This document shows, one piece after another, positions 12,260 through 49,956 of a stretch of 64,000 bases of DNA (position 1 is the first letter of the stretch; each line of letters starts with the position of its first letter). A program made the translations under genes and the position numbers. The DNA comes from Defluviicoccus sp. GTDB lineage: Bacteria > Pseudomonadota > Alphaproteobacteria > MPNO01. The notes under the pieces were generated by a model, which worked only from the letters and a program-made list of their open reading frames with translations, was not told where the DNA came from and did no database searches. The DNA lies in NCBI GenBank assembly GCA_028820505.1, contig JAPPIT010000058.1, forward strand, positions 2,287-66,286, read 5' to 3'.

Positions 12260-12459
12260 AACGGCGTCGTTTCCGGCATCCCGTTCCGCCGCGCCGAGCC
12301 CTTGATTCTTCCCATTGCAGCAACAGGTTGTGCTATAGTGGCGACGGTGCGCGCGGCGCTTCGTTCGGGGCGCATTGGAGGCGCCGGACGCCACCCGCCG
12401 GTTCGGCGGAACACGCCTTGTCCGGAAGGAGAAACTCCTCAATCGGGGATCCCGGGACG

Positions 12460-13578: not shown

Positions 13579-13628
13579 CCCTTCGCGCGCGGGAAACGCT
13601 GGAGAACGCATACGCGGGGGCGGCAACC

Positions 13629-17755
<4,127 letters not shown>

Positions 17756-27373: not shown

Positions 27374-27428
27374 CCCGCGGCCTCCGATCCCCCACGCCAT
27401 TCAGCAACGCATGTGTGTAGCAGCGAGA

Positions 27429-27911
27429 TCAAACAACATCCTCCAGCCGTAGCGCTTCGAGCAAGCTATCCGGCAAGCGGTAACGATATGCCCAAGCCTC
27501 CTCGTCCCACTCGGCGTCGAACAACCAAGAGCCTCGGACATAGCCTTGGGTGTGTGAGGCACGCCTGCCGAACGCTCCCATAAGACCGGCAAGCTGACTC
27601 GACGTGTAATCGGTAGCAGCACAAAGCTCATCTCTCGAAACCCATTCTGGATAGGCGTCTTTGAGTGTTTCGAGTACGATCTTTTGCCCTGTGCTTAGCT
27701 GACGACGGGTTAGCACCCGACGGGCGAACTCGACAGTCACGAACTTCTTCGGCTCCCCGGAAGCTGGAGACGAACCCGTAGAGCCGCTTGTCTCGGACAG
27801 CGCCGCCTCTCCGAGCGGTTCATCTGGCATCAGATTTGCCCCATTTTGCCTAAGGGCACGTGCGACCTTGGCGATTTCCTCGGGTGTACCTTCAAATACA
27901 GTCATTTTCAT
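27429..27911 (-). CDS. hypothetical protein in a low-GC islet (putative wHTH C-terminal domain)
   Basis: The ORF lies in a ~600-bp stretch that is clearly AT-richer than its flanks. No family recognised. Start taken at MKMTVFEG. It has an AT-rich upstream region carrying the direct repeats aagcctataa and aggctataag. Confidence 0.45.
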   Translation of the reverse strand: MKMTVFEGTPEEIAKVARALRQNGANLMPDEPLGEAALSETSGSTGSSPASGEPKKFVTVEFARRVLTRRQLSTGQKIVLETLKDAYPEWVSRDELCAATDYTSSQLAGLMGAFGRRASHTQGYVRGSWLFDAEWDEEAWAYRYRLPDSLLEALRLEDVV

Positions 27912-28027
27912 AGCGGCTTCATCCTCCTCTTCTATGCCCCCAGAGAGCCTAGAAGGCAATATGAAGCCTATAAATTATAATTTCAAGAGGCTATAAGGCT
28001 TTTCTGGCTGCTATGCGTGTCTTCCTT

Positions 28028-28915
28028 TTACCTCTCCACCCCCGCCAGCCCTTCCAGCACGCCGCAGACGCACGCCGTGTCCTCCGCGACCCGGCCCTGC
28101 GCCAGCGCCGCGTTGTAGATCTGGCCCGACGCCGCGAAGCAGGGGGCCGCGCAGCCCAGTTCGGCGAGGAAGTCGCCGATGACCTTCATGTCCTTGAGCT
28201 GCATGTCGATCGACGCCGAGGCGTCGGAATAGTCGCCCGCGACCATCTGGGGGCCGCGCACCTCGAAGATGCGCGAGGTGGCGGCGCTGTTGGAGATCAC
28301 CTCGTAGATCGTCTCCGGCGCGAGCCCCGCCTTGAGGCCGAGGGCGAAGGCTTCCCCGGCGGCGACGTTGTGGATGGCGACGAGCAGGTTGGCGACGAAC
28401 TTCATCCGGCTGCCGTTGCCGAATTCGCCGAGGTCGTACTGGGCGCGGGAGAACCCCTCGAAGACGTCGGAGAGCCCGGCGATCGCCGCCGTGTCGCCGC
28501 TCGCATAGACCACCAGGTCCCCGGTCAGCGCCTGCTTGCCGGTGCCGCTCAACGGCGTGTCGAGCAGGATTTTCCCCGTTTCGGCCAGCGTCGCCCGCCC
28601 CGCCTCCTTGACCGGGATGGGGAGCGTCGAGGTGTCGAAGGCGACGAGGCCGGGCTTCTCGGCCTCGGCGATGCCTTCGGCGCCCGTGGTCACCGCCTCG
28701 AACGCCGCGATGCTGGGCAGCGAGGTCATCACGCAATCGGCCGCCTCGGCCACCGCGCGCGGGCTGTCGGCCACCTGCCCGCCCATCGCGGCGAGCGCGT
28801 CCGCGCGGGCCGGGTCGGTGTCGCGCCCGACCACCCCGAATCCGGCCCCGATCAGGTTCTTCGCCATCGCCGAGCCCATCCGGCCCAGCCCCACGATTCC
28901 GACCGTCTTCGCCAT
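28028..28915 (-). CDS. NAD(P)-dependent beta-hydroxyacid dehydrogenase (3-hydroxyisobutyrate dehydrogenase family)
   Basis: Start MAKTVGIVGLGRMGSAMAKNL with the Rossmann GxGxxG motif, and the HIBADH-family catalytic Lys region. Confidence 0.8.
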   Translation of the reverse strand: MAKTVGIVGLGRMGSAMAKNLIGAGFGVVGRDTDPARADALAAMGGQVADSPRAVAEAADCVMTSLPSIAAFEAVTTGAEGIAEAEKPGLVAFDTSTLPIPVKEAGRATLAETGKILLDTPLSGTGKQALTGDLVVYASGDTAAIAGLSDVFEGFSRAQYDLGEFGNGSRMKFVANLLVAIHNVAAGEAFALGLKAGLAPETIYEVISNSAATSRIFEVRGPQMVAGDYSDASASIDMQLKDMKVIGDFLAELGCAAPCFAASGQIYNAALAQGRVAEDTACVCGVLEGLAGVER

Positions 28916-28991
28916 CGCCCCTCTCCCGCGCCGCGAGGCGCCCTGTGCTATAAGACCGGCGCGCACCATAGCGGCTCGGGGAAGGCGGGGC

Positions 28992-31334
28992 ATGGCAAAT
29001 CAGGGGGTGGGCGCGTCCATCGCCCGCAAGGAGGACGACCGCCTGATGCGGGGCCGCGGCCGCTTCGTCGGCGATTTCGGCCTCGCCGGACAGCTCGAGG
29101 CGGCGTTCGTCCGGAGCCCCGTCGCGCACGCCCGGATCGGGGCGATCGACATCCCGGACGACATCCGGCCGCGCGTCTTCACCCATGCCGACATGGAAGG
29201 CGTCAAGCCGATCCGCGCGGTCTCGGCGCTGCCCGGGTTCAAGCCCTCGGACCAACCGGCGCTGGCGTCGGAGAAGGTGCGCCAGGTGGGCGAGACGATC
29301 GCGGTCTGCGTGGCGGAAACCCGCGCCGAGGCCGAGGACATGGCCGACCGCGTGGCGGTCGATTTCGAGATATTGCCGGCGGTCTCCGACATGCTGGCCG
29401 CGCGCGATGCGGACGCGCCGCTGATCCACGAGCAGTGGGGCGACAACGTCTTCCTGGAGACCGATGTCAACGACGACATGGAGGCGGTCGCCGCTCGCGC
29501 TGCGGTCAAGGTCACGCGCGAGGTCCGCACCGCGCGCCAGTGCATGGCGCCGATCGAGGGCAAGGGCGTGCTCGCCGAATGGGACCCGAGGCTCCGCCAG
29601 CTCACCGTGACCTCGGCGGCGCAGCTCCCCCACATCGTCCGCAACGGGCTCGCCGAATGCCTCGGGATGGACCTCGCGAGCGTCCGGGTGATCGCGCCCG
29701 ATGTCGGGGGCGGGTTCGGCTACAAGGGGCTCCTCGCACCGGAGGAGATCTGCATCGCCTGGCTCGCCAGGCGCCTGGAGCGCCCGGTGCGGTGGCTGGA
29801 GGACCGGCGCGAGCATCTGACCGCCAACGCCAATTGCCGCGAGCACCACTACATCGTCACCGGCTACGCCGACGCCGATGGAAAGCTGCTCGGGATCGAG
29901 GCCGAGGCGACGGTCGATGCCGGCGCCTATTCGGCCTACCCGTTCTCGGCCTGCCTGGAGGCCGCCCAGGTCGCCTCGATCCTGCCCGGGCCCTACATCA
30001 TGGACGCCTTCCGCTGCCGCACCTGGTCGATCGCGTCGAACAAGCCGCCGATCCTCCCCTATCGCGGGGTGGCGCGGGCCGGCGTCTGCTTCGCGCTGGA
30101 GATCGTTATCGACGCCATCGCCCGCGAGGTCGGGCGCGAGCCGCACGAGGTCAGGCTGGAGAGCCTGGTGAAACCCGAGCAGATGCCGTTCGACAACATC
30201 ACCGCCAAGCACTACGACAGCGGCGACTACCCCGAGTGCATCCGCCGCGCGGCCGAGGCGATCAACGTCGCGGGGGTGCGCGCGCGCCAGGCGCGAGGCG
30301 AGCCGGACGGGCGGCGCGTCGGGGTCGGCTTCTCGATCTTCTGCGAGCAGGCGGGCCACGGCACGGCGGTCTATTCCGGCTGGGGGATCCCGATGATCCC
30401 GGGCTTCGAACAGGCCGGCGCGCGGCTCACGCCGGACGGCGCGTTGGAGCTCCGCGTCGGCGTCCACAGCCACGGTCAGGGGCTCGAGACCAGCCTCGCC
30501 CAGGTGGCGCACGAGGTGCTCGGCATCGATACCGACGACGTGCGCGTGGTGCTGGGCGATACCGCCTACACCCCCTACTCGACCGGCACCTGGGGGTCGC
30601 GCTGCATGATCATGGCGGGCGGCGCGACGGCGGAGGCCTGCAAGCTGCTCGCCGAGCGCATCCGGCAGATCGGCGCCGGGCTGCTCCAGGTCGAGCCCAC
30701 CTCGGTGCGGCTGGAGGACGGACGGGTCGTCAGCGCATCGGGGAGCGTGACGCTGCAGGAGGTCGGCCGCACCTGGTACCTGCGCCCGCAGGACCTCACC
30801 GCCGACGTCGACCGGCAGGGGCTGGAGACGATCGGCGGCTACAAGCCGGAGCGCGATTCCGGCACCTTCAGCTATGCCTGCCACGCCGCGATCGTCGCCG
30901 TCGACGCCGCGACCGGCGAGGTCGAGATCCTGGACTATGTGGTGGTCGAGGACGGCGGGGTGCTGGTCAACCCGATGATCGTCGACGGGCAGGTCCATGG
31001 CGGCACCGGACAGGGGATCGGCACGGCGCTCTACGAGGAGATGCCCTACGCCGAGGACGGCCAGCCGCTCGCGCCCACGCTCGCCGACTACCTGCTGCCG
31101 GGGCCGACCGAGATCCCGGCGATCCGGGTCGATCACATGGAGACCCCCTCGCCCTACACCACCTTCGGCCAGAAGGGGATCGGCGAGGGCGGCGCGATCG
31201 GACCGCCGGCGGCGATCGCCAACGCGGTCAACGACGCGCTCGCGCAGCTCGGCGTCGAGATCTCCGAGTGCCCGATCACGCCGCGCCGGCTGCTCGCCGC
31301 CATCGCCGCGGCGGCCGAGAACGGCGACCGGTGA
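28992..31334 (+). CDS. xanthine dehydrogenase family molybdopterin-binding large subunit (CoxL-like), lone
   Basis: 780 aa. N-terminal ARKEDDRLMRGRGRFVGD, plus GGGFG and other Mo-hydroxylase large-subunit motifs. No adjacent small or medium subunit genes on this strand. Confidence 0.85.
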   Translation: MANQGVGASIARKEDDRLMRGRGRFVGDFGLAGQLEAAFVRSPVAHARIGAIDIPDDIRPRVFTHADMEGVKPIRAVSALPGFKPSDQPALASEKVRQVGETIAVCVAETRAEAEDMADRVAVDFEILPAVSDMLAARDADAPLIHEQWGDNVFLETDVNDDMEAVAARAAVKVTREVRTARQCMAPIEGKGVLAEWDPRLRQLTVTSAAQLPHIVRNGLAECLGMDLASVRVIAPDVGGGFGYKGLLAPEEICIAWLARRLERPVRWLEDRREHLTANANCREHHYIVTGYADADGKLLGIEAEATVDAGAYSAYPFSACLEAAQVASILPGPYIMDAFRCRTWSIASNKPPILPYRGVARAGVCFALEIVIDAIAREVGREPHEVRLESLVKPEQMPFDNITAKHYDSGDYPECIRRAAEAINVAGVRARQARGEPDGRRVGVGFSIFCEQAGHGTAVYSGWGIPMIPGFEQAGARLTPDGALELRVGVHSHGQGLETSLAQVAHEVLGIDTDDVRVVLGDTAYTPYSTGTWGSRCMIMAGGATAEACKLLAERIRQIGAGLLQVEPTSVRLEDGRVVSASGSVTLQEVGRTWYLRPQDLTADVDRQGLETIGGYKPERDSGTFSYACHAAIVAVDAATGEVEILDYVVVEDGGVLVNPMIVDGQVHGGTGQGIGTALYEEMPYAEDGQPLAPTLADYLLPGPTEIPAIRVDHMETPSPYTTFGQKGIGEGGAIGPPAAIANAVNDALAQLGVEISECPITPRRLLAAIAAAAENGDR

Positions 31335-32275
31335 CGGCCCCGCCCCGTTCGGGCGGAGAGGTCGGGTTCGTCCTGCCCGAGCCTTCCACGACCCTTGATC
31401 TCGCGATGGACGACGGCGCGCCGATCCGCGTCGTGCGCCAGGGCAACCCGTCCGGGCCGCGTGTCGTGCTGAGCCACGGCAACGGCTTTGCGAGCGATAG
31501 CTACTTCCCGTTCTGGCGGCTCATGCTGGACCGGTTCGACCTCTGCCTGTTCGACTTCCGCAATTGCGGGCGCAACCCGTTCCACGCGGCCGAGCCGCAC
31601 GACTATCGCCGTTTCGCGCGCGACAACGTGACTGTACATCGCGCCGTCGCGGAAGAATGGGGCGCGAAGACCACGATCGGGACCTTCCATTCGATGTCGG
31701 CGATCGCCGCGCTGCTCGCGATCGTCGACGGCGTCTGGCACTGGGACGCGCTGGTGCTGTTCGACCCGCCGGTGGTCCCGCCGGAAGGCGACCCGCTGCG
31801 CGCCGAGCTGCTGACCGAGGGGGAGGCGCTGCGCGACGCCGCCCTGATCCGCAAGAATCGGTTTCCCGATCCGGAAGAGATGGCCGACGTGTTCCGCTAC
31901 CTGCACCGGTTCCGGCGGCTGCGGGAGGGGGTGCCGGAACTCAACACACGCTCGACACTGCGCTTCGATCCGGCTTCGGGCGAGTGGCTGCTCGCCTGTC
32001 CCGGCCCTGTGGAAGCCAATCTGTATGTCGAGGTCGGGGAACTGCCGATCTGGCGGAAGCCCGGCGGTCCGGCGCGCCCGCTCCTGATCGTCGGCGCCGA
32101 CCCGGAACCCGCGGACGCGCCGAAGACGGCGCCTTGTTGCAGACTGTACTGCGAAACCTTCGAAATCGACTATGCCTGCGTGCCCGATACCAGCCACCTG
32201 TTGCAGCTCGAAGAGCCCGAGCTGTGCTTCGCCCTGTTCGAGGATTTCCTGAGCCGGAACGGGATCGCCGCATGA
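31331..32275 (+). CDS. alpha/beta-hydrolase fold protein, tandem paralog 1
   Basis: GTG start overlaps the CoxL stop (GTGA). HGNGF oxyanion motif and an atypical nucleophile elbow TFHSMSA. Its N-terminus aligns with paralog 2 (MTAPP versus MNAPP). Confidence 0.7.
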   Translation: MTAPPRSGGEVGFVLPEPSTTLDLAMDDGAPIRVVRQGNPSGPRVVLSHGNGFASDSYFPFWRLMLDRFDLCLFDFRNCGRNPFHAAEPHDYRRFARDNVTVHRAVAEEWGAKTTIGTFHSMSAIAALLAIVDGVWHWDALVLFDPPVVPPEGDPLRAELLTEGEALRDAALIRKNRFPDPEEMADVFRYLHRFRRLREGVPELNTRSTLRFDPASGEWLLACPGPVEANLYVEVGELPIWRKPGGPARPLLIVGADPEPADAPKTAPCCRLYCETFEIDYACVPDTSHLLQLEEPELCFALFEDFLSRNGIAA

Positions 32276-33198
32276 ACGCGCCGCCGGACATTTTCCGCGT
32301 CCCGGAGCCTCTGGAGAGCTTCGATGCCGAGATGGAGGACGGCGCCGTCATCCGGGTGCGGCGCCACGGCAACCCGGACGGGCCCAGGCTGGTGATGGCG
32401 CACGGCAACGGATTCGCGATCGACGCCTATTACCCGTTCTGGCGGCTGCTCACGGACCGCTACGACCTCGCGATCTACGACCAGCGCAATCACGGCCGCA
32501 ACCCGCGCCACGACGTGGACCGCCACGACGTTCCCACCTTCGTCGCCGACATGGACCGGTTGGTCGACCTCATCCCGGAGCGTTTCGGCGCCAGGCCAAC
32601 GGTCGGCGCGTTCCATTCGATCTCGGCGGTGACCGCGGTCCGGCACGCGCTGGAACGCGGCTGGAAGTGGGATGCACTCGCGCTGTTCGACCCGCCGCTG
32701 ATCCCCTCGCCCGGCCACCGGGCGCACGAGGTGGCACGGACGTTCGAGCTCGGTCTCGCGGACTGGGCGGCGGCGCGGCCGGACCGGTTCTCCGACGCGA
32801 TGGAGCTCGCCGTCCGCTTCGCGCGCTCGAAGAGCCTCGCGCGCTGGGTCGAGGGCGGGCACGCGCTGATGGCGCGCTCGATCACCCGCGAGGACCCGGC
32901 AACCGGAGAATTCGTGCTGTGCTGCCCGCGCGAGGGAGAGTCGCGGGTCTACCGCACCAACGCGGGGCTCGACCTCTGCCCGCGCCTCGGCGAGCTGAAG
33001 GGGCCGCTCACCTTCATCTCGTCCGACCCCGACGCGCCGGGCGCGCTGGCGCCGGGCAAGGTCGGCCGCGCGATGAAGGAAGACCACGGCATCGAATGGA
33101 CACCGATCGGAAACACCAGCCACCTGCTCCAGATCGAACGCCCCGACGCCTGCCACGCGGCGCTGGAGACCTTCCTCGCGAGGCAGGACCTCGGTTAA
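32272..33198 (+). CDS. alpha/beta-hydrolase fold protein, tandem paralog 2
   Basis: ATGA overlap with paralog 1. HGNGF, elbow AFHSISA, Asp 24 residues after the Ser, and a C-terminal NTSHLLQ His. Confidence 0.7.
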   Translation: MNAPPDIFRVPEPLESFDAEMEDGAVIRVRRHGNPDGPRLVMAHGNGFAIDAYYPFWRLLTDRYDLAIYDQRNHGRNPRHDVDRHDVPTFVADMDRLVDLIPERFGARPTVGAFHSISAVTAVRHALERGWKWDALALFDPPLIPSPGHRAHEVARTFELGLADWAAARPDRFSDAMELAVRFARSKSLARWVEGGHALMARSITREDPATGEFVLCCPREGESRVYRTNAGLDLCPRLGELKGPLTFISSDPDAPGALAPGKVGRAMKEDHGIEWTPIGNTSHLLQIERPDACHAALETFLARQDLG

Positions 33199-33201
33199 GG
33201 A

Positions 33202-33298
33202 GGTCCCTCGATACGGTCCCTTCGGGACCTACTCGGGATGAGGGAATTCCACGGATTCCCTCACCCTGAGCAGCCGCGAAGCGGCGTATCGAAGGGCG
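33202..33298. repeat. MITE-like element with terminal inverted repeats, copy 1
   Basis: ggtccctcgatacgg ... ccgtatcgaagggcg termini and an internal cctactcgggatgaggg / ccctcaccctgag stem. It fills the 103-bp gap between convergent gene ends. A reverse-complement copy lies at 62252-62359. Confidence 0.55.
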
Positions 33299-33301
33299 GC
33301 G

Positions 33302-34339
33302 TCAACGGCCCTCGACGCGCATGTCGGCCGGCACGATGCGGCCGCCGTCCACGATCGTCTCGCCGTCGAGTGTGAGCGTGCAGCCCTTGAGCGGGATGTC
33401 GATATGGCACAGCGTGTCGTTGTCCCCGCCGACCTCGGTATTGGGGCCGGTCGAGAATAGGACGTTGCCGTAGAACGCGCGGCCGTCCTGGCCGGTCGAG
33501 TCCGCCGCCGCCGGGTCGGTGCCCATGAAATCCCAGCGCGCCCTCGGGTCGAGCCCCCAGCCGATATGGGAAACCGAGTAGGCGCGCGGGTCGTCATAGC
33601 CCGCCATGAAGCTCCTGAGCAGCGCCGCGTCGAGCCCCTCGCCGCCGATGTCGGTGATCATGCCGCTCTCGATGGTGAGCGTGATCGGATCGGTGACGTA
33701 GCGCATCGTGGGCAACAGCAGCTGATCGCCGGTGTCGATCACCACCGTCCCGTCGACGCCGTCCTCCACCGCCGCGGTGTAGAGGAACACGCCCGGCCAG
33801 TGGTCCCACCGGCCCGGCTTGTCGGTGTAGCCGTACTGCTCGCCGATCCGGTAGCCGCCGAAACGGTAGGTCACGTCGGTGCCGCCCGGCGAGGTAATGC
33901 GCATCTCCTTCGCCTTGGCCAGCCTGGCCGAGCCGGCCTCTATCCGGCGCCGGTCGTCCGGATTCGACACCATCCGCTTGAGCACGTCGATCGGCTCGAT
34001 GACGAGCAGCATGCGCGGACCGGCGTCGGTGATCTCGGTCTGCTCCCTCGACCACAGCAGGCCGACCAGGTCCACCACCATGTCGACGCTCTTGAGCGCG
34101 GCCTTGGCCGGCTCGTTGCCCTGGAGCGAATTGCCCGGGCCGAAGAAGCTTCCGGGCTTCTTCCTGATGTTGACCTGGAACGCGTCCGCTTCGAGCTCTG
34201 CCGCGGCGGCGAGGAACGCCGCCGCATGCTCGGCCCGGACATCGTCCTCCGAAAGCACGGCGAGGCTGGTCCCCGCCCCCACATCGCAAAGCTCGAGCTG
34301 TTTCCTGAACAACGCGACCGTTTCGGCATTCGCAGCCAT
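33302..34339 (-). CDS. aminopeptidase-T (M29)-fold protein, candidate 2,5-dihydroxypyridine 5,6-dioxygenase (NicX/Hpo-like)
   Basis: 345 aa from MAANAE. His258 and His312-x-Asp314 (CHIDIPLKG) are spaced like the H265/H318/D320 iron ligands I recall for NicX. Last gene of the coxLSM-Rieske operon. Confidence 0.55.
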   Translation of the reverse strand: MAANAETVALFRKQLELCDVGAGTSLAVLSEDDVRAEHAAAFLAAAAELEADAFQVNIRKKPGSFFGPGNSLQGNEPAKAALKSVDMVVDLVGLLWSREQTEITDAGPRMLLVIEPIDVLKRMVSNPDDRRRIEAGSARLAKAKEMRITSPGGTDVTYRFGGYRIGEQYGYTDKPGRWDHWPGVFLYTAAVEDGVDGTVVIDTGDQLLLPTMRYVTDPITLTIESGMITDIGGEGLDAALLRSFMAGYDDPRAYSVSHIGWGLDPRARWDFMGTDPAAADSTGQDGRAFYGNVLFSTGPNTEVGGDNDTLCHIDIPLKGCTLTLDGETIVDGGRIVPADMRVEGR

Positions 34340-34424
34340 CGTTCCCTCCGCCTTCTGCCGCCCGTCCCGGGCGCTTTCCGGAAACGCTATCACCCGCTGT
34401 TCCGGGCGGCAAGGAAAGCGCGCC

Positions 34425-34895
34425 TCAGACCGGCTTGGCGAGGAGCGTCGGGATCGAGAACGTGTCGAGCACGACGACGCGCTCGACGAATTTGAGGGCG
34501 CCGCCGAAGAACCCCATCGTGTCGCGGTAGCAGCCGATCGCGAACAGGCGCGAGACGCCCTCCACGTCGGTCTGGTAGAGCGCGTAATTCGTCTCCGCTT
34601 CGATCCGTTCGCCTGGATCGGCGGCTATCCGGGGCGGGCCGGTGATGTGGCGCGTGGTGTGCGGGTTGAACGTGTTGGCCCTGAGCAACGAGACGATCCG
34701 GTCGCTCAGCGCCTTCTTGGTCTCGCACAGCATCACGCTGCCCGGCAGGCCCTGCTGGACGTTCTCCAGCGGCACGATGCGATAGGCGCATTCGTCGTGG
34801 AACAGGTCGAGCCAGGCCTGCCAGTCCTCGTTGTCGAGGGCGGCGGAGGACTCGGCGATCAGGGCTTCGACCCGCGCCCGGAGCTCGATGTCCAC
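34425..34895 (-). CDS. aromatic-ring-hydroxylating dioxygenase beta subunit (SnoaL-like fold)
   Basis: 156 aa. NEDWQAWLDLFHDECAYRIVP, typical of small subunits. Sits 4 nt after the alpha subunit stop. Confidence 0.75.
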   Translation of the reverse strand: MDIELRARVEALIAESSAALDNEDWQAWLDLFHDECAYRIVPLENVQQGLPGSVMLCETKKALSDRIVSLLRANTFNPHTTRHITGPPRIAADPGERIEAETNYALYQTDVEGVSRLFAIGCYRDTMGFFGGALKFVERVVVLDTFSIPTLLAKPV

Positions 34896-34899
34896 CTGC

Positions 34900-36159
34900 T
34901 CAGCCCTCGTTGGGGTCGAGGCCCATGATGTCGCAATAGTGGGACCAGAAGCCGCGGATCATCACGTCGTCGAGCTTTTCGTCGCCGTCGCGGATCGGCC
35001 CGCGCCCGCCCATCTCGACCACGGAGACGTCGCTGCCGCCGGCGCGGTGGCCCGACTGGCAGGATTCGAGCGCCTCCGCGTCCTCCAGCGAGACATAGCC
35101 GGCGGGTCCCGCCATGTTGGCCTGGCGCAGGCGATGGGCGGTCATCGCCTCGCTGTCGTCCTCATAGCCGAAGATCGTGAAGACGAGGTCGAACGCGCCG
35201 GGTCCCCTGGGCCGGATCTGGCGGGCGGCGAGCGCGTTCCGGATCTGCTGGAAGGTGCTGTTGGGGAAGATCGAGCACATGGTGGTCGACCGGTCGTCCT
35301 CGAACTCGCGCTCGAAGCGGAGCAGCGCCGGGTCCTGCAGCGCGAGCCGCGATCCCTCCGCGGCTTCGGCAAGAGGCCGCGGCGGGCCGGGATCGGCGGC
35401 GGGCGGCGGCGCGGTTTCGTACTCCTCGGGCGGCTGCCGGACGAAGAGCAGGCTGTGGCGCCGCTTCGGATCCATCCGCGAGCCGCAATCGTGGGTCGAC
35501 CGGTTGATCCCGAAGGTGCTCTGGAAACCGTGCAGCAGCGCGCCGTGGTAATGGTCGCGCACGTTCTCCAGATAGGCCTTCCAGTTGCTGCGCACCGACT
35601 GGCGCTGGTAGCCGAGAATCCGGATCGGCGCGCGGAACAGGCGCTCCAGGTGGGCGACATGGGTCGGGCCGAGATAGTCGCGCAGCGGCTCGACGGTCTC
35701 CGAGAAGGTGGCGAAGAGGACGCCGTTCACCCCGTCCACGCGAAGCTTCCGCAGCCCGTGGCAGGCCATGTCGAAATCGTCGGGCATACCCGGGCTGCCG
35801 CCGACGCCGTGGCGGTGGGGAATCGCGACCAGATCGCCCGTCAGGTCGTAGGTCCAGCTGTGATAGAGGCAGACATGGGCCGAGACGTTGCCGAAATTCT
35901 CGCGCTGGATCAGCGCGCCGCGATGCGAGCAGCGGTTGACGAAGGCATGGACCCGCCCGTCTCCGGCGCGGTTGAAGACGATCGGCGCCTCGCCCACGAA
36001 GGTTCGGCGGAAATCGCCCGCGTCGGGGATCTCGGCTTCGAGCCCGATGAACGACCAGGCCTCGCCCTCGAAGATGCGCTCGATTTCCAGCCGGTAGAGC
36101 GCCTCGTCGTGGTACCAGGCGTAGGGAATGCGGTCGAAGGCGGCGCCGGGACGTTCCAT
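34900..36159 (-). CDS. Rieske non-haem-iron oxygenase alpha subunit
   Basis: Rieske motif CSHRG...CLYHSW and a mononuclear iron motif DHYHGALLH. Start taken at MERPGAAF. An upstream in-frame Met at 36216 is possible. Confidence 0.8.
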   Translation of the reverse strand: MERPGAAFDRIPYAWYHDEALYRLEIERIFEGEAWSFIGLEAEIPDAGDFRRTFVGEAPIVFNRAGDGRVHAFVNRCSHRGALIQRENFGNVSAHVCLYHSWTYDLTGDLVAIPHRHGVGGSPGMPDDFDMACHGLRKLRVDGVNGVLFATFSETVEPLRDYLGPTHVAHLERLFRAPIRILGYQRQSVRSNWKAYLENVRDHYHGALLHGFQSTFGINRSTHDCGSRMDPKRRHSLLFVRQPPEEYETAPPPAADPGPPRPLAEAAEGSRLALQDPALLRFEREFEDDRSTTMCSIFPNSTFQQIRNALAARQIRPRGPGAFDLVFTIFGYEDDSEAMTAHRLRQANMAGPAGYVSLEDAEALESCQSGHRAGGSDVSVVEMGGRGPIRDGDEKLDDVMIRGFWSHYCDIMGLDPNEG

Positions 36160-36235
36160 CGTGGGTCCCCGCAATGGTCTCTTGTCCTTCGATTCTATCC
36201 GTTGAACGGCGGCCACGCCAAGCGCGGAGCGCCGC

Positions 36236-37033
36236 TCAAAGACATTCTGCTACCGCGTCCTCGGTCAGCACCCCGATCAGGTGCGCACGGTAGGCGGCGC
36301 TGCCATGCAGGTCGTCGGTGAGGCCGTCCGCCGGGACCGAGAGCCCGGCGAGCGAGTCCGCGCTGAACGAGCCGGCGAGCGCCCGCTCGAACGGCTCCAC
36401 GCGGAACACGCAGGGACCCGCGCCGGTGACCGCGACCCGGACAGTGCGGTCGGCGAAGCGGGCTAGGAAGACGCCGACGATGGAAAACCGCGATGCCGGG
36501 TTGGGAAACTTGCGGTAGCTCGCGGCGGCGGGGATCGGGAACCGCACCTCGACGATCAGCTCGCCGGGCTCCAGCGCGGTCTGGAACATGCCCAGGAAGA
36601 AATCGCCGGCCGCGACGCGGCGACGGGTGGTGACGACCTCCGCGTCGAGCGCGAGCACGGCCGACGGGTAGCAGGCGGCGGGGTCATTGTTGGCGAGCGA
36701 GCCCCCGATGGTGCCCCGGTTGCGCACCAGCGGATCGCCGATCCCACCGGCGAGATTGCCGAGCGCCGGGATGACCTCCCTCACCGTTTCCGAGGCGGCC
36801 ACCGCCGCGTGCCGCGTCATCGCCCCGATGGTGAGCACGCCGGGTTCGGCGGAAACGCCCGCCAGGTCGCCGAGCGCGGCGAGGTCGACCAGGTCGGACG
36901 GCGCCGCCAGACGGTGCTTCATCACCGGAATCAGGCTCATCCCGCCGGCCAGCGGGCGCGCCTCCTCATCCGACGCAAGCAGACTCTCTGCCTCGGCAAC
37001 CGTGCCCGGCCGGTGATAGCGGTAGGGGTACAT
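36236..37033 (-). CDS. Mo-hydroxylase FAD-binding medium subunit (CoxM-like)
   Basis: MYPYRYHRPGTVAEA start, and FAD-binding PCMH motifs AGGMSLIP and GTIGGSLANNDP. The ATG overlaps the CoxS stop by 1 nt. Confidence 0.8.
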   Translation of the reverse strand: MYPYRYHRPGTVAEAESLLASDEEARPLAGGMSLIPVMKHRLAAPSDLVDLAALGDLAGVSAEPGVLTIGAMTRHAAVAASETVREVIPALGNLAGGIGDPLVRNRGTIGGSLANNDPAACYPSAVLALDAEVVTTRRRVAAGDFFLGMFQTALEPGELIVEVRFPIPAAASYRKFPNPASRFSIVGVFLARFADRTVRVAVTGAGPCVFRVEPFERALAGSFSADSLAGLSVPADGLTDDLHGSAAYRAHLIGVLTEDAVAECL

Positions 37034-37503
37034 CAGCCCTCCGCCATCGCCCCGGCGCCGGCGAGGATTGCGGCGACGATGTTGCGGTAGCCCGTGCAGC
37101 GGCAGAGATTGCCCTCCAGCCCGGCGCGGACTGAGGCTTCGTCCGCCGCCTCGCCGCGCCGGATCATATCGAGCGCGCTCATGATCATGCCTGGCGTGCA
37201 GAACCCGCATTGCAGCGCGTGATGTTCCTTGAAGGCGGCCTGGAGCGGGCTGAGCCCCTCTTCCGGCGAGACGCCCTCGATGGTGGTAACGGCATGGCCC
37301 ACGGCCTGGGCGGCGAAGACGGTGCATGACTTCACCGCGATGCCGTCGAGATGGACCGTGCAGGCGCCGCACTGGCTGGTATCGCAGCCGACATGGGTGC
37401 CGGTGAGCCCGGCCCGGCGGCGGATGAATTCGACCAGCAGCATCCTCGGGTCGATCTCCGCCCGGTGCTCGCGGCCGTTGATGTCGAGGGTGACGGGAAT
37501 CAT
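37033..37503 (-). CDS. Mo-hydroxylase (2Fe-2S)-binding small subunit (CoxS-like)
   Basis: MIPVTLDINGREH start, a plant-type ferredoxin CGACTV cluster and a second cluster CGFCTPG...CRCTGY. Starts 1 nt after the CoxL stop. Confidence 0.85.
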   Translation of the reverse strand: MIPVTLDINGREHRAEIDPRMLLVEFIRRRAGLTGTHVGCDTSQCGACTVHLDGIAVKSCTVFAAQAVGHAVTTIEGVSPEEGLSPLQAAFKEHHALQCGFCTPGMIMSALDMIRRGEAADEASVRAGLEGNLCRCTGYRNIVAAILAGAGAMAEG

Positions 37504-39917
37504 CCGGTCCCGGCCTTTTCGAGCGCCTGCCACACCGCGTCGGGCGTATAGGGCTGGGGCACGTGGCGCACGCCGAGGTCCCAGAGCGCATCGACGATCG
37601 CGTTGCCGATCGCCGCCGGCGCGCCGATCGTGCCGGTCTCGCTGCCGCCCTTGACGCCGAGCGGGTTGGACGGCGCCGGCGTCTCCTGAAAGGTCATACC
37701 GACGACCCCGGGCATGTCGGAGGCGCGGGGCAGGGCATAGTCCATCAGCGTTCCGGAGAAGAGCTGTCCCGCGCCGCCGCCGTCATAGACCACGCGCTCC
37801 ATCAGCGCCTGTCCGAGCCCCTGGGCGAGCCCGCCGACGACCTGCCCCTCGACGATCAGCGGGTTGACGATGTTGCCGCAATCGTCGGCGGTGAAGTAGT
37901 CGCGCACCGTCACCCTGCCCGACCGCAGCTCGACGACGACCACGGCAAGATGCATCGCCTGCGGGTCGTTGGTGTCGGGCGGCTCGTAGAACACGGTTTC
38001 CTCGAGCCCCGGCTCCATCGAGCCGTCGGTGGGCAGCACCGCGGCGTGGTAGGCGGCGTCGGCCACGTCCTCGAAGCTCAGCCGACGGTCGGTGCCGCGG
38101 ACCGAGAAGACGGAACCCTCGTAAACCAGATCCTCCTCGGCGCATTCGAGCATGTGCGCGGCGAGCCGCCTGGCCTTGTCGATCACCCTGTCGGCCGCCT
38201 TCATGATCGCGACCCCGCCGACCGAGAGCGAGCGCGACCCCCAGGTGCCGTTGCCGAACGGGACGCTGCCGGTATCGCCCTCGACCAGCGCGATGTCCTC
38301 GATGGGGAGGCCGAGACGATCGGCGGCGATCTGGCAGAAGGTGGTGTCGTGACCCTGGCCGTGGCTGTGGGAGCCGACGAAGACGGTCGCCTTGCCGTCG
38401 GAATGGACGCGGACGATGGCGCTCTCGTAGCCGCCATGCAGCCCGCCGCGGCTGGCCAGGTTGCGGCTCGACCCGGTGCCCGACTTGTCGAGGAAGCAGG
38501 CGATGCCGATGCCCATCCGGACGCCCCCTTCCCGGAGCTCCTCTTGCTCGGCCCGCAGCCCGTCGTAATCGGCGATCTCCAGCAGCTTGTCGAACAGCGC
38601 CGGCGGATCGCCGCAATCGTAGGGGCGCCCGACCGGCGTGGTGTAGGGGAAGGCCTCCGCCGGGATCAGATTGCGGCGCCGGATCTCGGCCACGTCGATG
38701 CCGAGCTCGCGCGCGCCGTTTTCCAGCAGCCGCTCGTTGACGAAGGTGGCCTCGGGCCGCCCGGAGCCGCGATAGGCGTCGATGGGAACGGTGTTGGTGT
38801 AGGCCCCGCGCACGCGCAGACGCAGGTTGGGTGTGGTGTAGAGCCCGGTGACGGTCTGCGGGTAGGAATTGCCCGGGATGCTCGGCGCGAAGTTGGAGAG
38901 ATAGGCGCCGAGCGCGGCGATAGTGTCGATCTCTAGCGCGAGGATCCGGCCGTCCCCGTCGAAGGCCATGCGCGCCCTGGTGTGGTGGTCGCGCGCCTGC
39001 GCGTCCGACATCAGCGCCTCCGCCCGGGTCGAGGTCCACTTGACCGGGCGCTTCAGCAGCATCGAGGCCCACACCACCGTCGAGACCTCGACCGCGAAAT
39101 GGCATTTCAGCCCGAACCCGCCGCCGACGTCGGGCGAGATCACCCGTAGCTTGTGCTCGGGTACGTGGAGCGCGTACTTGGCGAGCCAGCGTTTGAGATA
39201 GTGGGGCGTCTGGCTGGTCGCCCAGAGCGTGATGTCGCCGGTCGCCTCGTCGAACTCGGACAGGTAGGCGCGGGGTTCCAGCGGGCTGCCGGCGACACGG
39301 TGGGTATCGAGCGTCAGCGAGACCGTGCGATGCGCCGCCGCGAACGCGGCTTCCGTCGCCGCGCGGTCGCCGCGCTCGATCTCGAAGATCAGGTTGGAGC
39401 CGAACCGCTCGTGCAGCACGGGCGCGTCCTCGTCCAGGCTGCGCGCGATGTCGGTGACCGCGGGCAGGGGTTCATAGTCGACCGCGACCGCCTCGGCGCC
39501 GTCGAGCGCGGCATAGCGGTCGTCCGCGACCACCGCGGCCACCACGTCGCCCACGTGATGCACCTTGCCGGCGGCGAGCGCCGGGCGCAGCACCTCGTTC
39601 ATCGGCCGCCCGTCGGAGAACGGCATCGGGTGAACGCATGTGAGCTCGCCGAGCCCGGCCGCCTTCCAGTCCTCGGCGGTCAGCACCCTCAGCACGCCCG
39701 GCAGCGCCGCCGCCGCGCTCGGATCGACCCCGTTTATGCGGGCATGGGCGTGGGGCGAGCGGACGAAGGCGACATGGGCAGTCCCGGCCGGCTCGATATC
39801 GTCGACGAACCGCCCGCGCCCCTTGAGGAACTTGTCGTCCTCGCGGCGCCTCAGCCTTTGTCCGACATACACGTCCCTGTCCCCGTATCGCCGGATCAAT
39901 AACGGGCAGGCTCGCAT
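37500..39917 (-). CDS. Mo-hydroxylase molybdopterin-binding large subunit (CoxL-like), first gene of coxLSM-type operon
   Basis: 805 aa. RRREDDKFLKGRGRFVDD N-terminus, GGGFG, and C-terminal GVKGGSETGTIGAPAAIGNAIVDAL. Confidence 0.85.
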   Translation of the reverse strand: MRACPLLIRRYGDRDVYVGQRLRRREDDKFLKGRGRFVDDIEPAGTAHVAFVRSPHAHARINGVDPSAAAALPGVLRVLTAEDWKAAGLGELTCVHPMPFSDGRPMNEVLRPALAAGKVHHVGDVVAAVVADDRYAALDGAEAVAVDYEPLPAVTDIARSLDEDAPVLHERFGSNLIFEIERGDRAATEAAFAAAHRTVSLTLDTHRVAGSPLEPRAYLSEFDEATGDITLWATSQTPHYLKRWLAKYALHVPEHKLRVISPDVGGGFGLKCHFAVEVSTVVWASMLLKRPVKWTSTRAEALMSDAQARDHHTRARMAFDGDGRILALEIDTIAALGAYLSNFAPSIPGNSYPQTVTGLYTTPNLRLRVRGAYTNTVPIDAYRGSGRPEATFVNERLLENGARELGIDVAEIRRRNLIPAEAFPYTTPVGRPYDCGDPPALFDKLLEIADYDGLRAEQEELREGGVRMGIGIACFLDKSGTGSSRNLASRGGLHGGYESAIVRVHSDGKATVFVGSHSHGQGHDTTFCQIAADRLGLPIEDIALVEGDTGSVPFGNGTWGSRSLSVGGVAIMKAADRVIDKARRLAAHMLECAEEDLVYEGSVFSVRGTDRRLSFEDVADAAYHAAVLPTDGSMEPGLEETVFYEPPDTNDPQAMHLAVVVVELRSGRVTVRDYFTADDCGNIVNPLIVEGQVVGGLAQGLGQALMERVVYDGGGAGQLFSGTLMDYALPRASDMPGVVGMTFQETPAPSNPLGVKGGSETGTIGAPAAIGNAIVDALWDLGVRHVPQPYTPDAVWQALEKAGTG

Positions 39918-39989: not shown

Positions 39990-40103
39990 ATGGGCGAACT
40001 GTTTGTCATCCTCGGTTTCATGGTGGTGGGCGGAATCGTCGCCTTCATCTGCGCCGAGATCGAGTGGCGGCTCGCGGGGAAACCGCGAATGACCGACCGG
40101 TAG
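39990..40103 (+). CDS. candidate 37-aa single-TM small protein
   Basis: ATG preceded by ggaaaggag at -12 to -4. MGELFVILGFMVVGGIVAFICAEIEWRLAGKPRMTDR has one hydrophobic helix. No homology assessed. Confidence 0.3.
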   Translation: MGELFVILGFMVVGGIVAFICAEIEWRLAGKPRMTDR

Positions 40104-40122: not shown

Positions 40123-40614
40123 TCACCCCAGCCGCGTCGACCGTTCTTCGTGCCCGGCCCATTTGGGCAGGGCGTCGTCGATGTCGAGCACCCGCGCGCC
40201 ATAGAAGATGTGGCAGCGGGGCCTGAACGCTTCCGGAACGGACGGCGGATCGCCGAAATCGAACAAGGAAGGGAAGGCGAGCCACATCCGCCTCCCCTCG
40301 TCCGCGATCGGGGTGCCGCAACGCCCGCAATCGATCCTGCAGGGCAGAATACGGTCGGGCGCGTCCGTCTCGCTGTTGTAGAAGCGGAGCAGGTCGAGCC
40401 CGGCGGTCAGGCGCACGTCGCGCTTGCGGAAAATCGCCGCCCACTGCATCGGCGCGCCGTGCCGATGCTGACAATGAACGCAATGGCAGATCTTCGCGGC
40501 GACCGGATCGGCGGAGACCTCGTAGCGGACGGCGCCGCATTTGCACCGTGCCCGGTACTTGGCGTGGAACCGGGCGTCGTCCGGGCGCATGTAGAGCCGC
40601 GCGAAGTCGTCCAT
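40123..40614 (-). CDS. GFA family protein (glutathione-dependent formaldehyde-activating / CENP-V-like zinc domain)
   Basis: Cys motifs CKCGAV...CHCVHCQ...CRIDCGRCG. Confidence 0.7.
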   Translation of the reverse strand: MDDFARLYMRPDDARFHAKYRARCKCGAVRYEVSADPVAAKICHCVHCQHRHGAPMQWAAIFRKRDVRLTAGLDLLRFYNSETDAPDRILPCRIDCGRCGTPIADEGRRMWLAFPSLFDFGDPPSVPEAFRPRCHIFYGARVLDIDDALPKWAGHEERSTRLG

Positions 40615-45635: not shown

Positions 45636-45680
45636 GGCGCGATGCTAACCCGCGCCCGCTTCCGGTCAAACGGGGAAGGG

Positions 45681-46175
45681 TCAGTCGCCGACCAGCCGTT
45701 CCAGGACCCGTTCGCGCTCTTCCTCGTCGATGATGCCGAGCAGGACCTTGCGATAGCCCTCGACCGCTCCGGCGCCGGCCTCGCGATAGGCGCGCGCGAT
45801 GCGGCTGCGCTGGTTCTCCGACAACCGGCGTTCGAGCTCCTGCCCCTTTTCGGTGAGCTCGAGCATGCGCTGGCGCCGGTCGCGCGTCCCGGTGCGCGAG
45901 AACACGTACCCCTCCGCCACGAGCTGGCTGAGCACCCGCGACACGCTCTGCTTGGTCACCTTCAGGATGTCGAGCAGTTGCGAGACGGTGATGCCGGGGT
46001 TGCGCCCGATGAAATAGACCACCCGGTGATGGGCGCGCCCGAAACCGAGCTCGGTCAGGATCGCGTCGGGCTGGCCGGTAAAATCGCGGTAGGCGTAGAA
46101 CAGCAGCTCGATCCCCTGGCGAAGATCCTCCTCGCGCAGGAACAGCGGGTTGAAGCCGGATTTTAAGTCAGCCAT
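45681..46175 (-). CDS. MarR family transcriptional regulator
   Basis: Winged-HTH ITVSQLLDILKVTKQSVSRVLSQLVAEGYV...DRRQRMLELTEKG. Confidence 0.75.
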   Translation of the reverse strand: MADLKSGFNPLFLREEDLRQGIELLFYAYRDFTGQPDAILTELGFGRAHHRVVYFIGRNPGITVSQLLDILKVTKQSVSRVLSQLVAEGYVFSRTGTRDRRQRMLELTEKGQELERRLSENQRSRIARAYREAGAGAVEGYRKVLLGIIDEEERERVLERLVGD

Positions 46176-46286
46176 GTTGACATATATGCAGCCCGCTGAT
46201 ACGCCCGGCAAGCAAAACAGGCATGGAAATCGGCTCGAATGCGGCGCGGAACCCGGCGGCGGGCGGGCGTCGGGCGGCGGTGGGAA

Positions 46287-48441: not shown

Positions 48442-48443
48442 CC

Positions 48444-49954: not shown

Positions 49955-49956
49955 CG

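Follow-up and report, generated by a model that had tools for sequence, protein, structure and literature searches.

We examined a 64-kb window (the whole stretch of 64,000 nucleotides analysed here, from contig JAPPIT010000058.1 of assembly GCA_028820505.1) of an uncultured Defluviicoccus-like bacterium, and within it a cluster of genes that encodes two molybdenum (Mo) hydroxylase large subunits, a Rieske oxygenase, a homolog of the ring-cleavage dioxygenase NicX and two alpha/beta hydrolases. A preliminary description of this DNA had proposed an N-heterocycle catabolic cluster with a NicX-family dioxygenase, two Mo catalytic subunits and a Rieske alpha/beta pair, and our analysis supports that proposal. 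As argued below, the cluster is most likely a rearranged variant of the picolinate and nicotinate pathways, and neither a new type of system nor a recently imported island.

Gene map of the cluster

The window has a GC content of about 70%, as a result of which raw lists of open reading frames (ORFs) are crowded with spurious long frames. The gene map was rebuilt from an analysis of GC content at third codon positions (GC3) in each frame and from the translations, and domain calls with Pfam and NCBIfam confirm every assignment. The gene positions and domains given in the preliminary description proved correct. The features are as follows.

28028-28915, minus strand: oxidoreductase (NAD(P)) of the 3-hydroxyisobutyrate dehydrogenase (HIBADH)/beta-hydroxyacid dehydrogenase family, 295 aa (Pfam)
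28992-31334, plus strand: "lone" Mo-cofactor-binding large subunit, assigned to the PicA1 family, 780 aa (xanthine dehydrogenase (XDH)-family domains)
31331-32275, plus strand: Hyd1, alpha/beta hydrolase, 314 aa (Pfam Abhydrolase_6)
32272-33198, plus strand: Hyd2, alpha/beta hydrolase, 308 aa
33199-33301, no strand: convergent intergenic spacer of 103 bp with a copy of a ~90-nt dispersed, hairpin-forming repeat
33302-34339, minus strand: non-haem Fe(II) ring-cleavage dioxygenase assigned to the NicX/PicD/Hpo family, 345 aa
34425-34895, minus strand: Rieske oxygenase beta subunit, 156 aa (Pfam Ring_hydroxyl_B)
34900-36159, minus strand: Rieske oxygenase alpha subunit, assigned to the aryl-carboxylate subfamily, 419 aa (Pfam Rieske and Ring_hydroxyl_A)
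36236-37033, minus strand: CoxM-type FAD-binding medium subunit, 265 aa (Pfam FAD_binding_5), the only one in the cluster
37033-37503, minus strand: CoxS-type [2Fe-2S] small subunit, 156 aa (Pfam Fer2_2 and Fer2), the only one in the cluster
37500-39917, minus strand: CoxL2, second Mo-cofactor-binding large subunit, 805 aa (three XDH-family domains)
40123-40614, minus strand: GFA-domain (glutathione-dependent formaldehyde-activating-like) protein (Pfam GFA, E 7e-19)

On the plus strand, the GTG start of Hyd1 lies over the stop codon of the lone large subunit (GTGA), and Hyd1 and Hyd2 overlap by ATGA; both junctions had been described before and are read directly in the sequence. The HIBADH gene is divergent from this operon, with a 76-bp spacer between them. 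On the minus strand, short intergenic gaps and stop/start overlaps connect CoxL2 through to the NicX homolog, the ATG of CoxM overlapping the stop codon of CoxS. CoxL2 starts with the ATG at 39917 (805 aa) or, in other gene callers, with the GTG at 39872 (790 aa). A scan for promoters and terminators gave matches at chance level only, and the weak promoter-like site between CoxM and Rieske alpha is of a kind that occurs at chance frequency in this DNA.

No homolog of a ferredoxin, a reductase, PicC, NicD/PicE, NicF or NicE was found in the 64 kb by tblastn with pic proteins and by Pfam searches of the other window ORFs, which bears out the local lack of electron carriers and of canonical lower-pathway genes that had been pointed out in the preliminary description. 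PicC, PicE, PicF and PicG gave no tblastn match at E<1e-3 in the window and none within 10 kb in 11 syntenic loci of related genomes; ferredoxin and reductase genes were also not found within 10 kb in these loci.

Predicted ring-cleavage and hydroxylation enzymes

The protein encoded at 33302-34339, previously described as having an M29 fold and a NicX-like iron triad, is by sequence comparison a clear NicX homolog. It aligned over its full length (residues 3-339 against 4-346) with NicX of Pseudomonas putida (PDB 7CN3) at E 3.6e-80. It had no match in the Pfam copy used; a precomputed annotation assigns it to PF26233:NicX. Its identity to PicD is 45%, and it is about equidistant (42-49% identity) from NicX, NdpE, PicD and the Pantoea and Thioclava homologs. 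NicX binds iron through His265, Ser302, His318 and Asp320 and positions its substrate with Leu104, His105, Glu177 and His189, although H105F and H105M variants are still active (PMC7910607). All four iron ligands are kept in the alignment, as are Leu104, His189, Arg293 and Glu308, while His105 is replaced by Trp, Glu177 by Gln, Cys76 by Gly and Val175 by Gly.

The Trp105/Gln177 pair is present in 97 of the 120 nearest homologs. The nearest relatives (66-77% identity) share the whole Trp105/Gln177/Gly76 pattern, and the gene for one of them, at 66% identity, adjoins NicD-like and NicF-like genes. Because the Trp105/Gln177 pair is subfamily-wide and includes a member with such neighbors, it is taken as a subfamily marker that signals no obvious change of substrate, and the subfamily plausibly still acts on 2,5-dihydroxypyridine. 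A pocket specialized for a carboxylated substrate, which would cleave 3,6-dihydroxypicolinate directly and so bypass PicC, was considered and is unsupported, since the Trp/Gln/Gly76 pattern extends across the subfamily and into a canonical NicD/NicF context. Gly175 is the sole pocket change specific to the lineage.

The next-closest relatives of the cluster were met at loci L097 (ENA ERZ26167216, on a contig of 2,606,847 bp) and L099, where the NicX homologs are 70-77% identical to that of the window. Their neighbors again include Rieske oxygenases and lone Mo large subunits, the latter 40-44% identical to CoxL2, and CoxS and CoxM are not encoded nearby. In L097, two NicX paralogs, two lone large subunits and a gene of the Amidohydro_2 (PicC) family are grouped around dapF-ftsY, as the cluster is in the window. 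It seems characteristic of this group that Mo large subunits are encoded with no partner subunit beside them.

The lone large subunit, treated before simply as CoxL, contains three XDH-family domains and is on sequence grounds a member of the PicA1 family, an affiliation that had been missed. It is 55.6% identical over its full length to PicA1 of Burkholderia sp. RPE67 and 55.3% identical to that of Paracoccus seriniphilus, and the identity between these two PicA1 proteins is 57.7%. Identity to CoxL2 is only 35%. Its closest relatives (64-68%) form an uncharacterized sister group from Methylobacterium, Azospirillum, Sinorhizobium, Geminicoccaceae and Paraburkholderia, for which a literature search found no published function, nor any for the gene module in which they lie. 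In all four sister-group loci examined, genes for a dedicated FAD subunit and an FeS-SRPBCC subunit come after that of the large subunit (Azospirillum encodes the SRPBCC protein separately), and a MarR related to the pic-cluster MarR is present in two of them (Methylobacterium and Azospirillum). An amidohydrolase and an alpha/beta hydrolase unrelated to Hyd1/Hyd2 precede the large subunit in Methylobacterium and Geminicoccaceae.

No FAD or FeS gene adjoins the lone large subunit, and the only such genes in the window are the CoxS and CoxM genes beside CoxL2. CoxS is without the C-terminal SRPBCC extension of PicA3, and no SRPBCC match was found in the window. Compared with FeS subunits of the PicA3 type and of the sister group, which are mostly ~390-410 aa long, it shows 47-52% identity to their N-terminal 150 aa; the Azospirillum subunit is short (162 aa), its SRPBCC protein being encoded by a separate gene. 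For CoxM, identity to FAD subunits of the PicA2 type and of the sister group is 31-41%.

CoxL2 scored below every NCBIfam cut-off. It is 33-36% identical to PicA1 and only 48% identical to its best annotated plasmid homolog; among solved structures it comes nearest to CO dehydrogenase CoxL/CutL, quinoline oxidoreductase QorL and KdhL. Form I CoxL has the active-site loop AYxCSFR with a Cu-binding Cys. CO dehydrogenase was rejected for both large subunits, by score (627 bits for CoxL2 against a cut-off of 991; 578 for the lone subunit against 950) and by their Cys-less loops (AYRGSGR in CoxL2 and PYRGVAR in the lone subunit).

The CxH...CxxH and DxxHxxxxH motifs of the Rieske alpha subunit are intact in the translation and in alignments to the TphA2 and NagG structures, which it matched over its full length at E ~1e-92. 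In the aryl-carboxylate subfamily of Rieske oxygenases, to which the hydroxypicolinate 3-monooxygenase PicB belongs, an arginine forms a salt bridge with the substrate carboxylate (R309 in TphA2 and R323 in NagG) (PMC9060491). Arg313 of the window protein aligns with these anchoring residues, Arg309 and Arg323, and the alpha/beta pair can be placed in this subfamily.

More precise names for the oxygenase were rejected. Both subunits fall under the curated NCBIfam cut-offs for the anthranilate 1,2-dioxygenase AndAcAd equivalog (417.9 bits against 750 for the AndAc-like alpha; 125.4 against 230 for the AndAd-like beta). Orthology to PicB3/PicB4 fails as well: alpha is 41% identical to PicB3, compared to 68% within a true PicB3 pair, and beta is 27-38% identical to PicB4 (38% for Burkholderia), compared to 51% between true orthologs. 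The window also has no PicB1 ferredoxin or PicB2 reductase. Homologs of the Rieske pair at 61-77% identity occur in other contexts, without NicX or Cox genes, and the exact alpha sequence is also found on contigs of metagenome-assembled genome (MAG) GCA_028819635.1 and of an ENA assembly.

The substrate might instead be a carbocyclic aromatic acid (anthranilate, salicylate or terephthalate-like), with the NicX homolog recruited to a non-heterocyclic ring. The best named matches of Rieske alpha are AndAc (418 bits), TphA2 (terephthalate dioxygenase) and NagG (salicylate 5-hydroxylase), JGI relatives are named anthranilate 1,2-dioxygenase, and the likeness to these enzymes extends over the full length and includes the alpha/beta architecture and the carboxylate-binding arginine. 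In gene context the window pair differs from them, adjoining Mo hydroxylases and NicX, not catechol or gentisate genes, with no cognate ferredoxin or reductase nearby. Against a carbocyclic substrate, the alpha subunit is far under the AndAc cut-off. The named or characterized NicX-family members met in our searches (NicX, PicD and NdpE) are all 2,5-dihydroxypyridine dioxygenases, and the ligand set of the window protein is intact. The PicA1-family subunit, and Mo hydroxylases generally, also point to N-heterocycles, and we consider a carbocyclic substrate very unlikely.

A second Rieske oxygenase, alpha-only and of the LigXa_C type (442 aa), is encoded next to a MarR gene about 4 kb past the cluster (44307-46211, minus strand), from which it is separated by dapF, a MiaB-like gene, ftsY and a NUDIX gene. 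The MarR protein (45681-46211) was considered as a PicR-type regulator and rejected, having no similarity to the pic-cluster MarR at E<1e-4.

Hydrolases, gene order and chromosomal setting

Hyd1 and Hyd2 are paralogs (41% identity) that, judged from their alignments, belong to an uncharacterized alpha/beta-hydrolase family; our search detected 755 homologs, none of them functionally named. The alpha/beta-hydrolase fold with a Ser-Asp-His triad is indicated by Pfam (Abhydrolase_6), by the alignment and by a confident model. Invariant in the family alignment are HGNGF, Ser116, Asp140, Asp252 and His284, and Hyd1 retains the HGNGF, Ser, Asp and His positions. The invariant motifs of Hyd1 and Hyd2 themselves are HGNGF, FHS[IM]S and LFDPP.

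The preliminary description had these hydrolases as NicD-type deformylases. Hyd2 matched NdpF at E 5e-4, over the N-terminal 120 residues only, and Pantoea NicD at E 0.12, with no match to PicE; for Hyd1 there was no deformylase match under E 0.29. Across the nic, pic and ndp clusters, true deformylases are 48-63% identical. On the basis of BLAST comparisons with four bona fide deformylases, NicD/PicE orthology of Hyd1 and Hyd2 was rejected, and the analogy holds only at the level of the fold. When compared by fold, Hyd2 gave E-2-(acetamidomethylene)succinate hydrolase of vitamin B6 degradation (PDB 3KXP) at rank 1 and the N-formylmaleamate deformylase Nfo (PDB 4L0C) at rank 5, with small score margins within a very uniform fold. 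These are the two solved hydrolases of pyridine ring-fission products, to which the modelled structure of Hyd2 appears closest. Identity of these enzymes to the Hyd proteins is only ~15%, and neither was retrieved by the Hyd family profile at E<=0.01, and Hyd1 and Hyd2 are ~40 residues longer. PDB searches with single sequences and with profiles returned superfamily-level matches only.

Outside the lineage, 69 other loci with Hyd homologs were fetched. A CoxL-type gene was present within 10 kb in 16 of these and an IorB-type Mo subunit in two more; CoA ligases, UbiD decarboxylases and amidohydrolases were frequent neighbors. As a guide to function the neighborhoods were set aside because their gene content is heterogeneous (sulfatase, SDR, GMC oxidoreductase, HMG-lyase-like, amidohydrolase, CoA ligase, UbiD and Mo hydroxylases). 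Enrichment among these neighbors is suggestive but indicates no single substrate.

A third, more distant Hyd paralog (46-49% identical to Hyd2) is encoded elsewhere with its own conserved neighbors at loci L047, L061, L062, L067, L070 and L074, which are in the same MAGs as L007, L008, L012, L015, L010 and L009, respectively, of the syntenic set described below. A further possible pic-like variant that uses the Hyd family was met in an uncultured alphaproteobacterium (L077, 14333-15283). The locus encodes a Hyd-family hydrolase, CoxLMS and, at 46% identity to CoxL2, a second large subunit; with these are an amidohydrolase, a CoA ligase and a homolog of Burkholderia PicC (54% identity).

Species-representative genomes were scanned with the Hyd family, yielding 11 lineage loci (L007-L017, from Defluviicoccus sp. 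or Alphaproteobacteria bacterium). The 11-gene order was identical in these 11 species-level MAGs at 78-97% amino acid identity, two of the loci (L011 and L009) ending before the far edge. The shared order is 2-hydroxyacid dehydrogenase, spacer, HIBADH, lone large subunit, Hyd1, Hyd2, NicX, Rieske beta, Rieske alpha, CoxM, CoxS, CoxL, GFA and dapF, and the ATGA coupling of Hyd1 and Hyd2 was conserved in all 10 loci checked. Since the order is kept in 11 species-level genomes, the arrangement is not due to chance. An unrelated ORF of 2.4 kb is inserted between Hyd2 and NicX in L009 (10396-13410), and in L013 (12062-12745) and also in L014 an ORF of 227 aa, whose translation resembles an outer-membrane protein, lies between NicX and Rieske beta. 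These insertions were considered as hidden ferredoxin or reductase genes and rejected, none being an electron carrier.

This conservation bears on whether the region is two or three independent modules that merely adjoin, namely the PicA1-like subunit with Hyd1/Hyd2, CoxLSM, and Rieske alpha/beta with NicX, each with a separate substrate. Parts of the cluster do occur by themselves: Hyd pairs are found without NicX or Rieske genes in L018, L020, L028, L033 and L034, Rieske pairs at 61-77% identity without NicX or Cox genes, and a NicX at 66% identity with canonical NicD/NicF-like neighbors. The two strands are separate transcription units, and the weak, chance-frequency promoter-like site between CoxM and Rieske alpha would fit a further division. 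Yet the full combination is retained in the 11 species-level genomes, the short gaps and overlaps connect CoxL2 through NicX, and the FeS and FAD partners that the lone large subunit requires are available nearby only on the other strand. Moreover, NicX relatives at 70-77% identity are again found near lone Mo large subunits and Rieske genes. Independent modules therefore appear improbable.

The cluster also resembles its chromosome in composition. Its GC content is 0.699, compared to 0.696 for the window, and the GC3 of its genes (0.85-0.96) is like that of dnaA, gyrB, ftsY and uvrB (0.88-0.92). The flanks hold genes for indolepyruvate oxidoreductase, SCO1, dapF, a MiaB-like protein, ftsY, uvrC, uvrB and Mo-cofactor biosynthesis. 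The presence of dnaA-dnaN-recF-gyrB (10847-17226) and of rpsT, encoding ribosomal protein S20 (10032-10295), indicates that the window spans the chromosomal origin region, the cluster beginning about 12 kb from gyrB. No integrase or transposase gene was found in the flanks, and neither these nor a tRNA gene were found at the cluster borders.

The preliminary description had drawn the cluster as a horizontally acquired genomic island, bounded at one end by a low-GC islet and with a miniature inverted-repeat transposable element (MITE) between its operons. The islet is real: 27401-28027 has 54% GC, compared to 70% for the window, and contains a minus-strand orphan ORF (27429-27911, 160 aa) with a GC3 of 0.57 and no Pfam match. 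However, this spacer, between the 2-hydroxyacid dehydrogenase gene and HIBADH, is the only variable flank, and it varies independently of the cluster. In a sister strain with an identical cluster (L001), a GmrSD-type gene and a PIN/PhdYeFM pair take its position, and in L012 the orphan is 59% identical. The islet looks like a variable defense/toxin-antitoxin hot-spot.

A dispersed repeat copy is likewise present between the operons, as the preliminary description had noted, although MITE is for it a label only. The repeat is ~90 nt long, and a second copy in the window lies on the opposite strand at 62252-62334 (40 nt at 97.5% and 21 nt at 100%), flanked by genes for a molybdopterin oxidoreductase and a Phd antitoxin. 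Further copies were found in relatives (L007 12223-12264; L008 10967-11008 and 18874-18944; L017 14159-14197; L070 6163-6258); all share a core of ~40 nt that is 92-100% conserved between copies, and they occupy intergenic sites. The copy in the convergent spacer has inverted repeats of 19 nt (84% complementary) and, outside these, 22 nt (73%), and the length of this spacer varies among the related genomes. The repeat may be called REP- or MITE-like (REP, repetitive extragenic palindromic), as a label and nothing further.

An orphan ORF in a low-GC spacer at one edge and a dispersed repeat between the operons are thus what favors the island. The data contradict it: composition and GC3 are those of the host, the cluster sits at the same position between the 2-hydroxyacid dehydrogenase gene and GFA-dapF in 11 species-level MAGs near housekeeping genes and the origin, no mobility gene marks its borders, and the repeat is found at many intergenic sites. 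Taken together, composition, synteny and the lack of mobility genes lead us to reject recent horizontal transfer, which we regard as hardly credible. We read the cluster as a chromosomal catabolic unit that this Defluviicoccus-like alphaproteobacterial lineage has inherited vertically.

Some genes at the edges are less easily assigned to the cluster. The HIBADH-family enzyme has the Pfam domains NAD_binding_2 and NAD_binding_11; its best NCBIfam matches, L-threonate dehydrogenase (187 bits) and tartronate-semialdehyde reductase (161 bits), are both far under cut-off, and its gene is beside the lone Mo subunit in 11 of 11 syntenic loci. All syntenic loci that reach far enough have the GFA gene between dapF and CoxL2, and it is not at the dapF flank of L097; it can be counted only as a possible member of the cluster. 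Between GFA and CoxL2 (39990-40103, plus strand) there is a 37-codon ORF, MGELFVILGFMVVGGIVAFICAEIEWRLAGKPRMTDR, with a strong ribosome-binding site, GGAAAGGAG. The gene calls of L001 and L003 include this ORF; its product is hydrophobic and without a family match, and is probably a small membrane peptide. Further along the window, moaE, moaD, moeA and mobB lie in a row (47968-50484, minus strand), and a gene of the sulfite-oxidase/YedY-type Oxidored_molyb family is at 61277-62230 (plus strand). All of these share the 64 kb with the two Mo hydroxylase genes and may be ordinary housekeeping genes.

A probable variant of the picolinate and nicotinate pathways

Among N-heterocycles, pyridine carboxylates and hydroxypyridines are common both in nature and as industrial compounds, and the known aerobic nicotinate (nic), picolinate (pic) and nicotine routes share a highly conserved NicX-NicD-NicF-NicE lower module. 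The pic cluster, as defined in Alcaligenes faecalis JQ135, encodes the Mo hydroxylase PicA1A2A3, the Rieske oxygenase PicB1-4 with its ferredoxin and reductase, the decarboxylase PicC, the NicX-like PicD, and PicE, PicF and PicG; picG may lie far from the rest, and the organization of pic clusters is very diverse (bioRxiv 10.1101/530550). The preliminary description held Rieske-type hydroxylation in such a pathway to be undescribed, which was mistaken, because pic already combines a Mo hydroxylase (PicA), a Rieske oxygenase (PicB) and a NicX-like dioxygenase (PicD) (bioRxiv 10.1101/530550).

We compared the window with the clusters of pic content on plasmid p1 of Burkholderia sp. RPE67 and on p420573 of P. 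seriniphilus. As in these, a Mo large subunit of the same family (55%), an aryl-carboxylate Rieske alpha/beta pair and a NicX-type dioxygenase are clustered. In contrast, the window cluster has no PicC, PicE deformylase, PicF amidase, PicG isomerase, PicB1 ferredoxin or PicB2 reductase and adds CoxL2, a HIBADH-type reductase and a pair of hydrolases from a different family. Its FeS subunit is without SRPBCC, its Rieske alpha is only 41% identical to PicB3, and no PicA2/PicA3 is beside the lone subunit. The nic system of P. putida KT2440 and relatives, read here from a Pantoea dispersa plasmid, is similar in that its NicX, which is 42% identical and has the same iron ligands, carries out the ring opening downstream of a Mo hydroxylase in the pathway. 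It differs in NicAB, a Mo enzyme of other architecture with fragmentary similarity, and in NicC, a flavin monooxygenase rather than a Rieske enzyme; the window has no NicD, NicF or NicE.

The proteins most similar to the lone subunit (64-68%) belong to an apparently uncharacterized alphaproteobacterial and betaproteobacterial module of MarR, an amidohydrolase/deacetylase, an alpha/beta hydrolase, Mo large, FAD and FeS-SRPBCC subunits and a branched-chain-type ABC transporter. It was examined in Methylobacterium radiotolerans (pMRAD01 64419-76770; L093), Geminicoccaceae SCSIO 64248, Azospirillum brasilense and Sinorhizobium meliloti pSymA (L094-L096). In Methylobacterium and Geminicoccaceae the large subunit is directly beside the alpha/beta hydrolase gene, as in the window. 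The module differs in having its own FAD and FeS-SRPBCC subunits, in a hydrolase that is not homologous to Hyd1/Hyd2 (none at E<1e-4), and in an amidohydrolase and a transporter that are absent from the window. Homarine (N-methylpicolinate) was also considered as a substrate and rejected as mechanistically unrelated, because the homABCDER pathway opens the ring by a flavin-type reaction to N-methylglutamate and uses no Mo, Rieske or NicX enzymes (PMC13236597).

From these comparisons we lean towards reading the cluster as a lineage-specific variant of the route from a pyridine carboxylate (picolinate- or nicotinate-like) through a dihydroxypyridine to NicX cleavage. Several results argue for this. 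The NicX homology is full-length, with the four iron ligands and most pocket residues conserved. The lone subunit is about as close to the PicA1 proteins (55%) as these are to each other (57.7%), and its sister group has the PicA architecture and, in two of four loci, a pic-related MarR. Rieske alpha belongs with PicB3 in the aryl-carboxylate subfamily and has the anchoring arginine, and Mo hydroxylase, Rieske alpha/beta and NicX-type genes together form the layout of experimentally defined pic clusters. Finally, gene order and hydrolase coupling are kept in 11 species-level genomes, and Mo genes are found near outside Hyd homologs.

Gene content, homology, conserved residues and synteny suggest the following substrates, order of steps, sharing of subunits and roles for the hydrolases. 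One or both Mo catalytic subunits (PicA1-family and form-II CoxL-like) would hydroxylate the ring carbon adjoining the nitrogen, the PicA1-family subunit using either the single CoxS/CoxM pair beside CoxL2 or a pair encoded elsewhere. Rieske alpha/beta would then add a further hydroxyl as PicB does, with Arg313 holding the substrate carboxylate and electrons supplied by a ferredoxin and reductase encoded outside the cluster. After a decarboxylation for which the cluster has no candidate gene, the NicX homolog would open the ring to an N-acyl (formyl) unsaturated amide. Hyd1 and Hyd2 would hydrolyze N-acyl and/or amide bonds in place of NicD/PicE and possibly NicF, and the HIBADH-family enzyme would convert the resulting oxo or hydroxy acid.

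A number of observations weigh against this pathway. With no decarboxylase (PicC/UbiD), NicD/PicE, NicF, NicE, ferredoxin or reductase in the 64 kb or in the 10 kb around the related loci, it is incomplete as drawn. No substrate is known for the proteins nearest to the lone large subunit (64-68%), and CoxL2 has no informative relative. Rieske alpha is no PicB3 ortholog and is equally close to anthranilate, salicylate and terephthalate oxygenases, and its homolog at 77% identity has a different gene context with no NicX. NicX was never beside Hyd homologs at the 69 loci fetched outside the lineage, and the structural ranking of the Hyd proteins depends on small score margins in a very uniform fold.

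Some of these gaps would close if the cluster belonged to an ordinary pic pathway, with picC, picE, picF, picG, the ferredoxin and the reductase encoded elsewhere and CoxL2 and the hydrolases as passengers. The PicA1-family subunit (55%), the Rieske pair (41% and 38%) and the PicD-like dioxygenase (45%) do lie together as in pic clusters, where picG may be distant and organization is diverse (bioRxiv 10.1101/530550), and a related MAG has an Amidohydro_2 (PicC-family) gene beside a second NicX paralog. But the large subunit is nearer to the non-pic sister group (64-68%), Rieske alpha is far outside the PicB3 range, and the PicA-type FAD and FeS-SRPBCC partners are missing from the window. In addition, every genome examined shows translational coupling of the PicA1-family gene to the hydrolase genes, an argument against reading the latter as passengers. 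An ordinary pic pathway is, on this evidence, unlikely.

The opposite possibility is a dihydroxypyridine route that is self-contained and dispenses with PicC and with NicD/E/F. Here the CoxS/CoxM pair may serve two interchangeable Mo subunits and pass the electrons from Mo-dependent hydroxylation directly to the reductase-less Rieske oxygenase, whose genes follow immediately downstream, making the hydroxylations redox-neutral, and the Hyd proteins would act as deformylase and amidase. The gene order L-S-M-alpha-beta-NicX and the lack of a ferredoxin or reductase gene within 10 kb in 11 genomes fit such a route. Related Rieske genes are also without adjacent reductases, however, which favors shared electron carriers encoded elsewhere, and we hold the self-contained route to be distinctly doubtful.

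In the pyridine-carboxylate variant that we favor, the lineage retains the NicX step and a PicA1-family hydroxylase, with uncharacterized hydrolases and a second Mo enzyme in place of the rest of the lower module. What is noteworthy is the unnamed hydrolase family and a large subunit without electron-transfer subunits of its own. The module that holds the sister group of the lone subunit occurs in cultured bacteria and is a tractable model for the function of these PicA1-like proteins. If the assignments are true, they would give a function to a widespread, unnamed alpha/beta-hydrolase family of 755 homologs, about a quarter of whose examined loci outside the lineage have a Mo hydroxylase within 10 kb, and would exemplify the sharing of electron-transfer subunits between Mo catalytic subunits. 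No current concept would be overturned, but the uncultured Defluviicoccus-like group would gain a catabolic trait.

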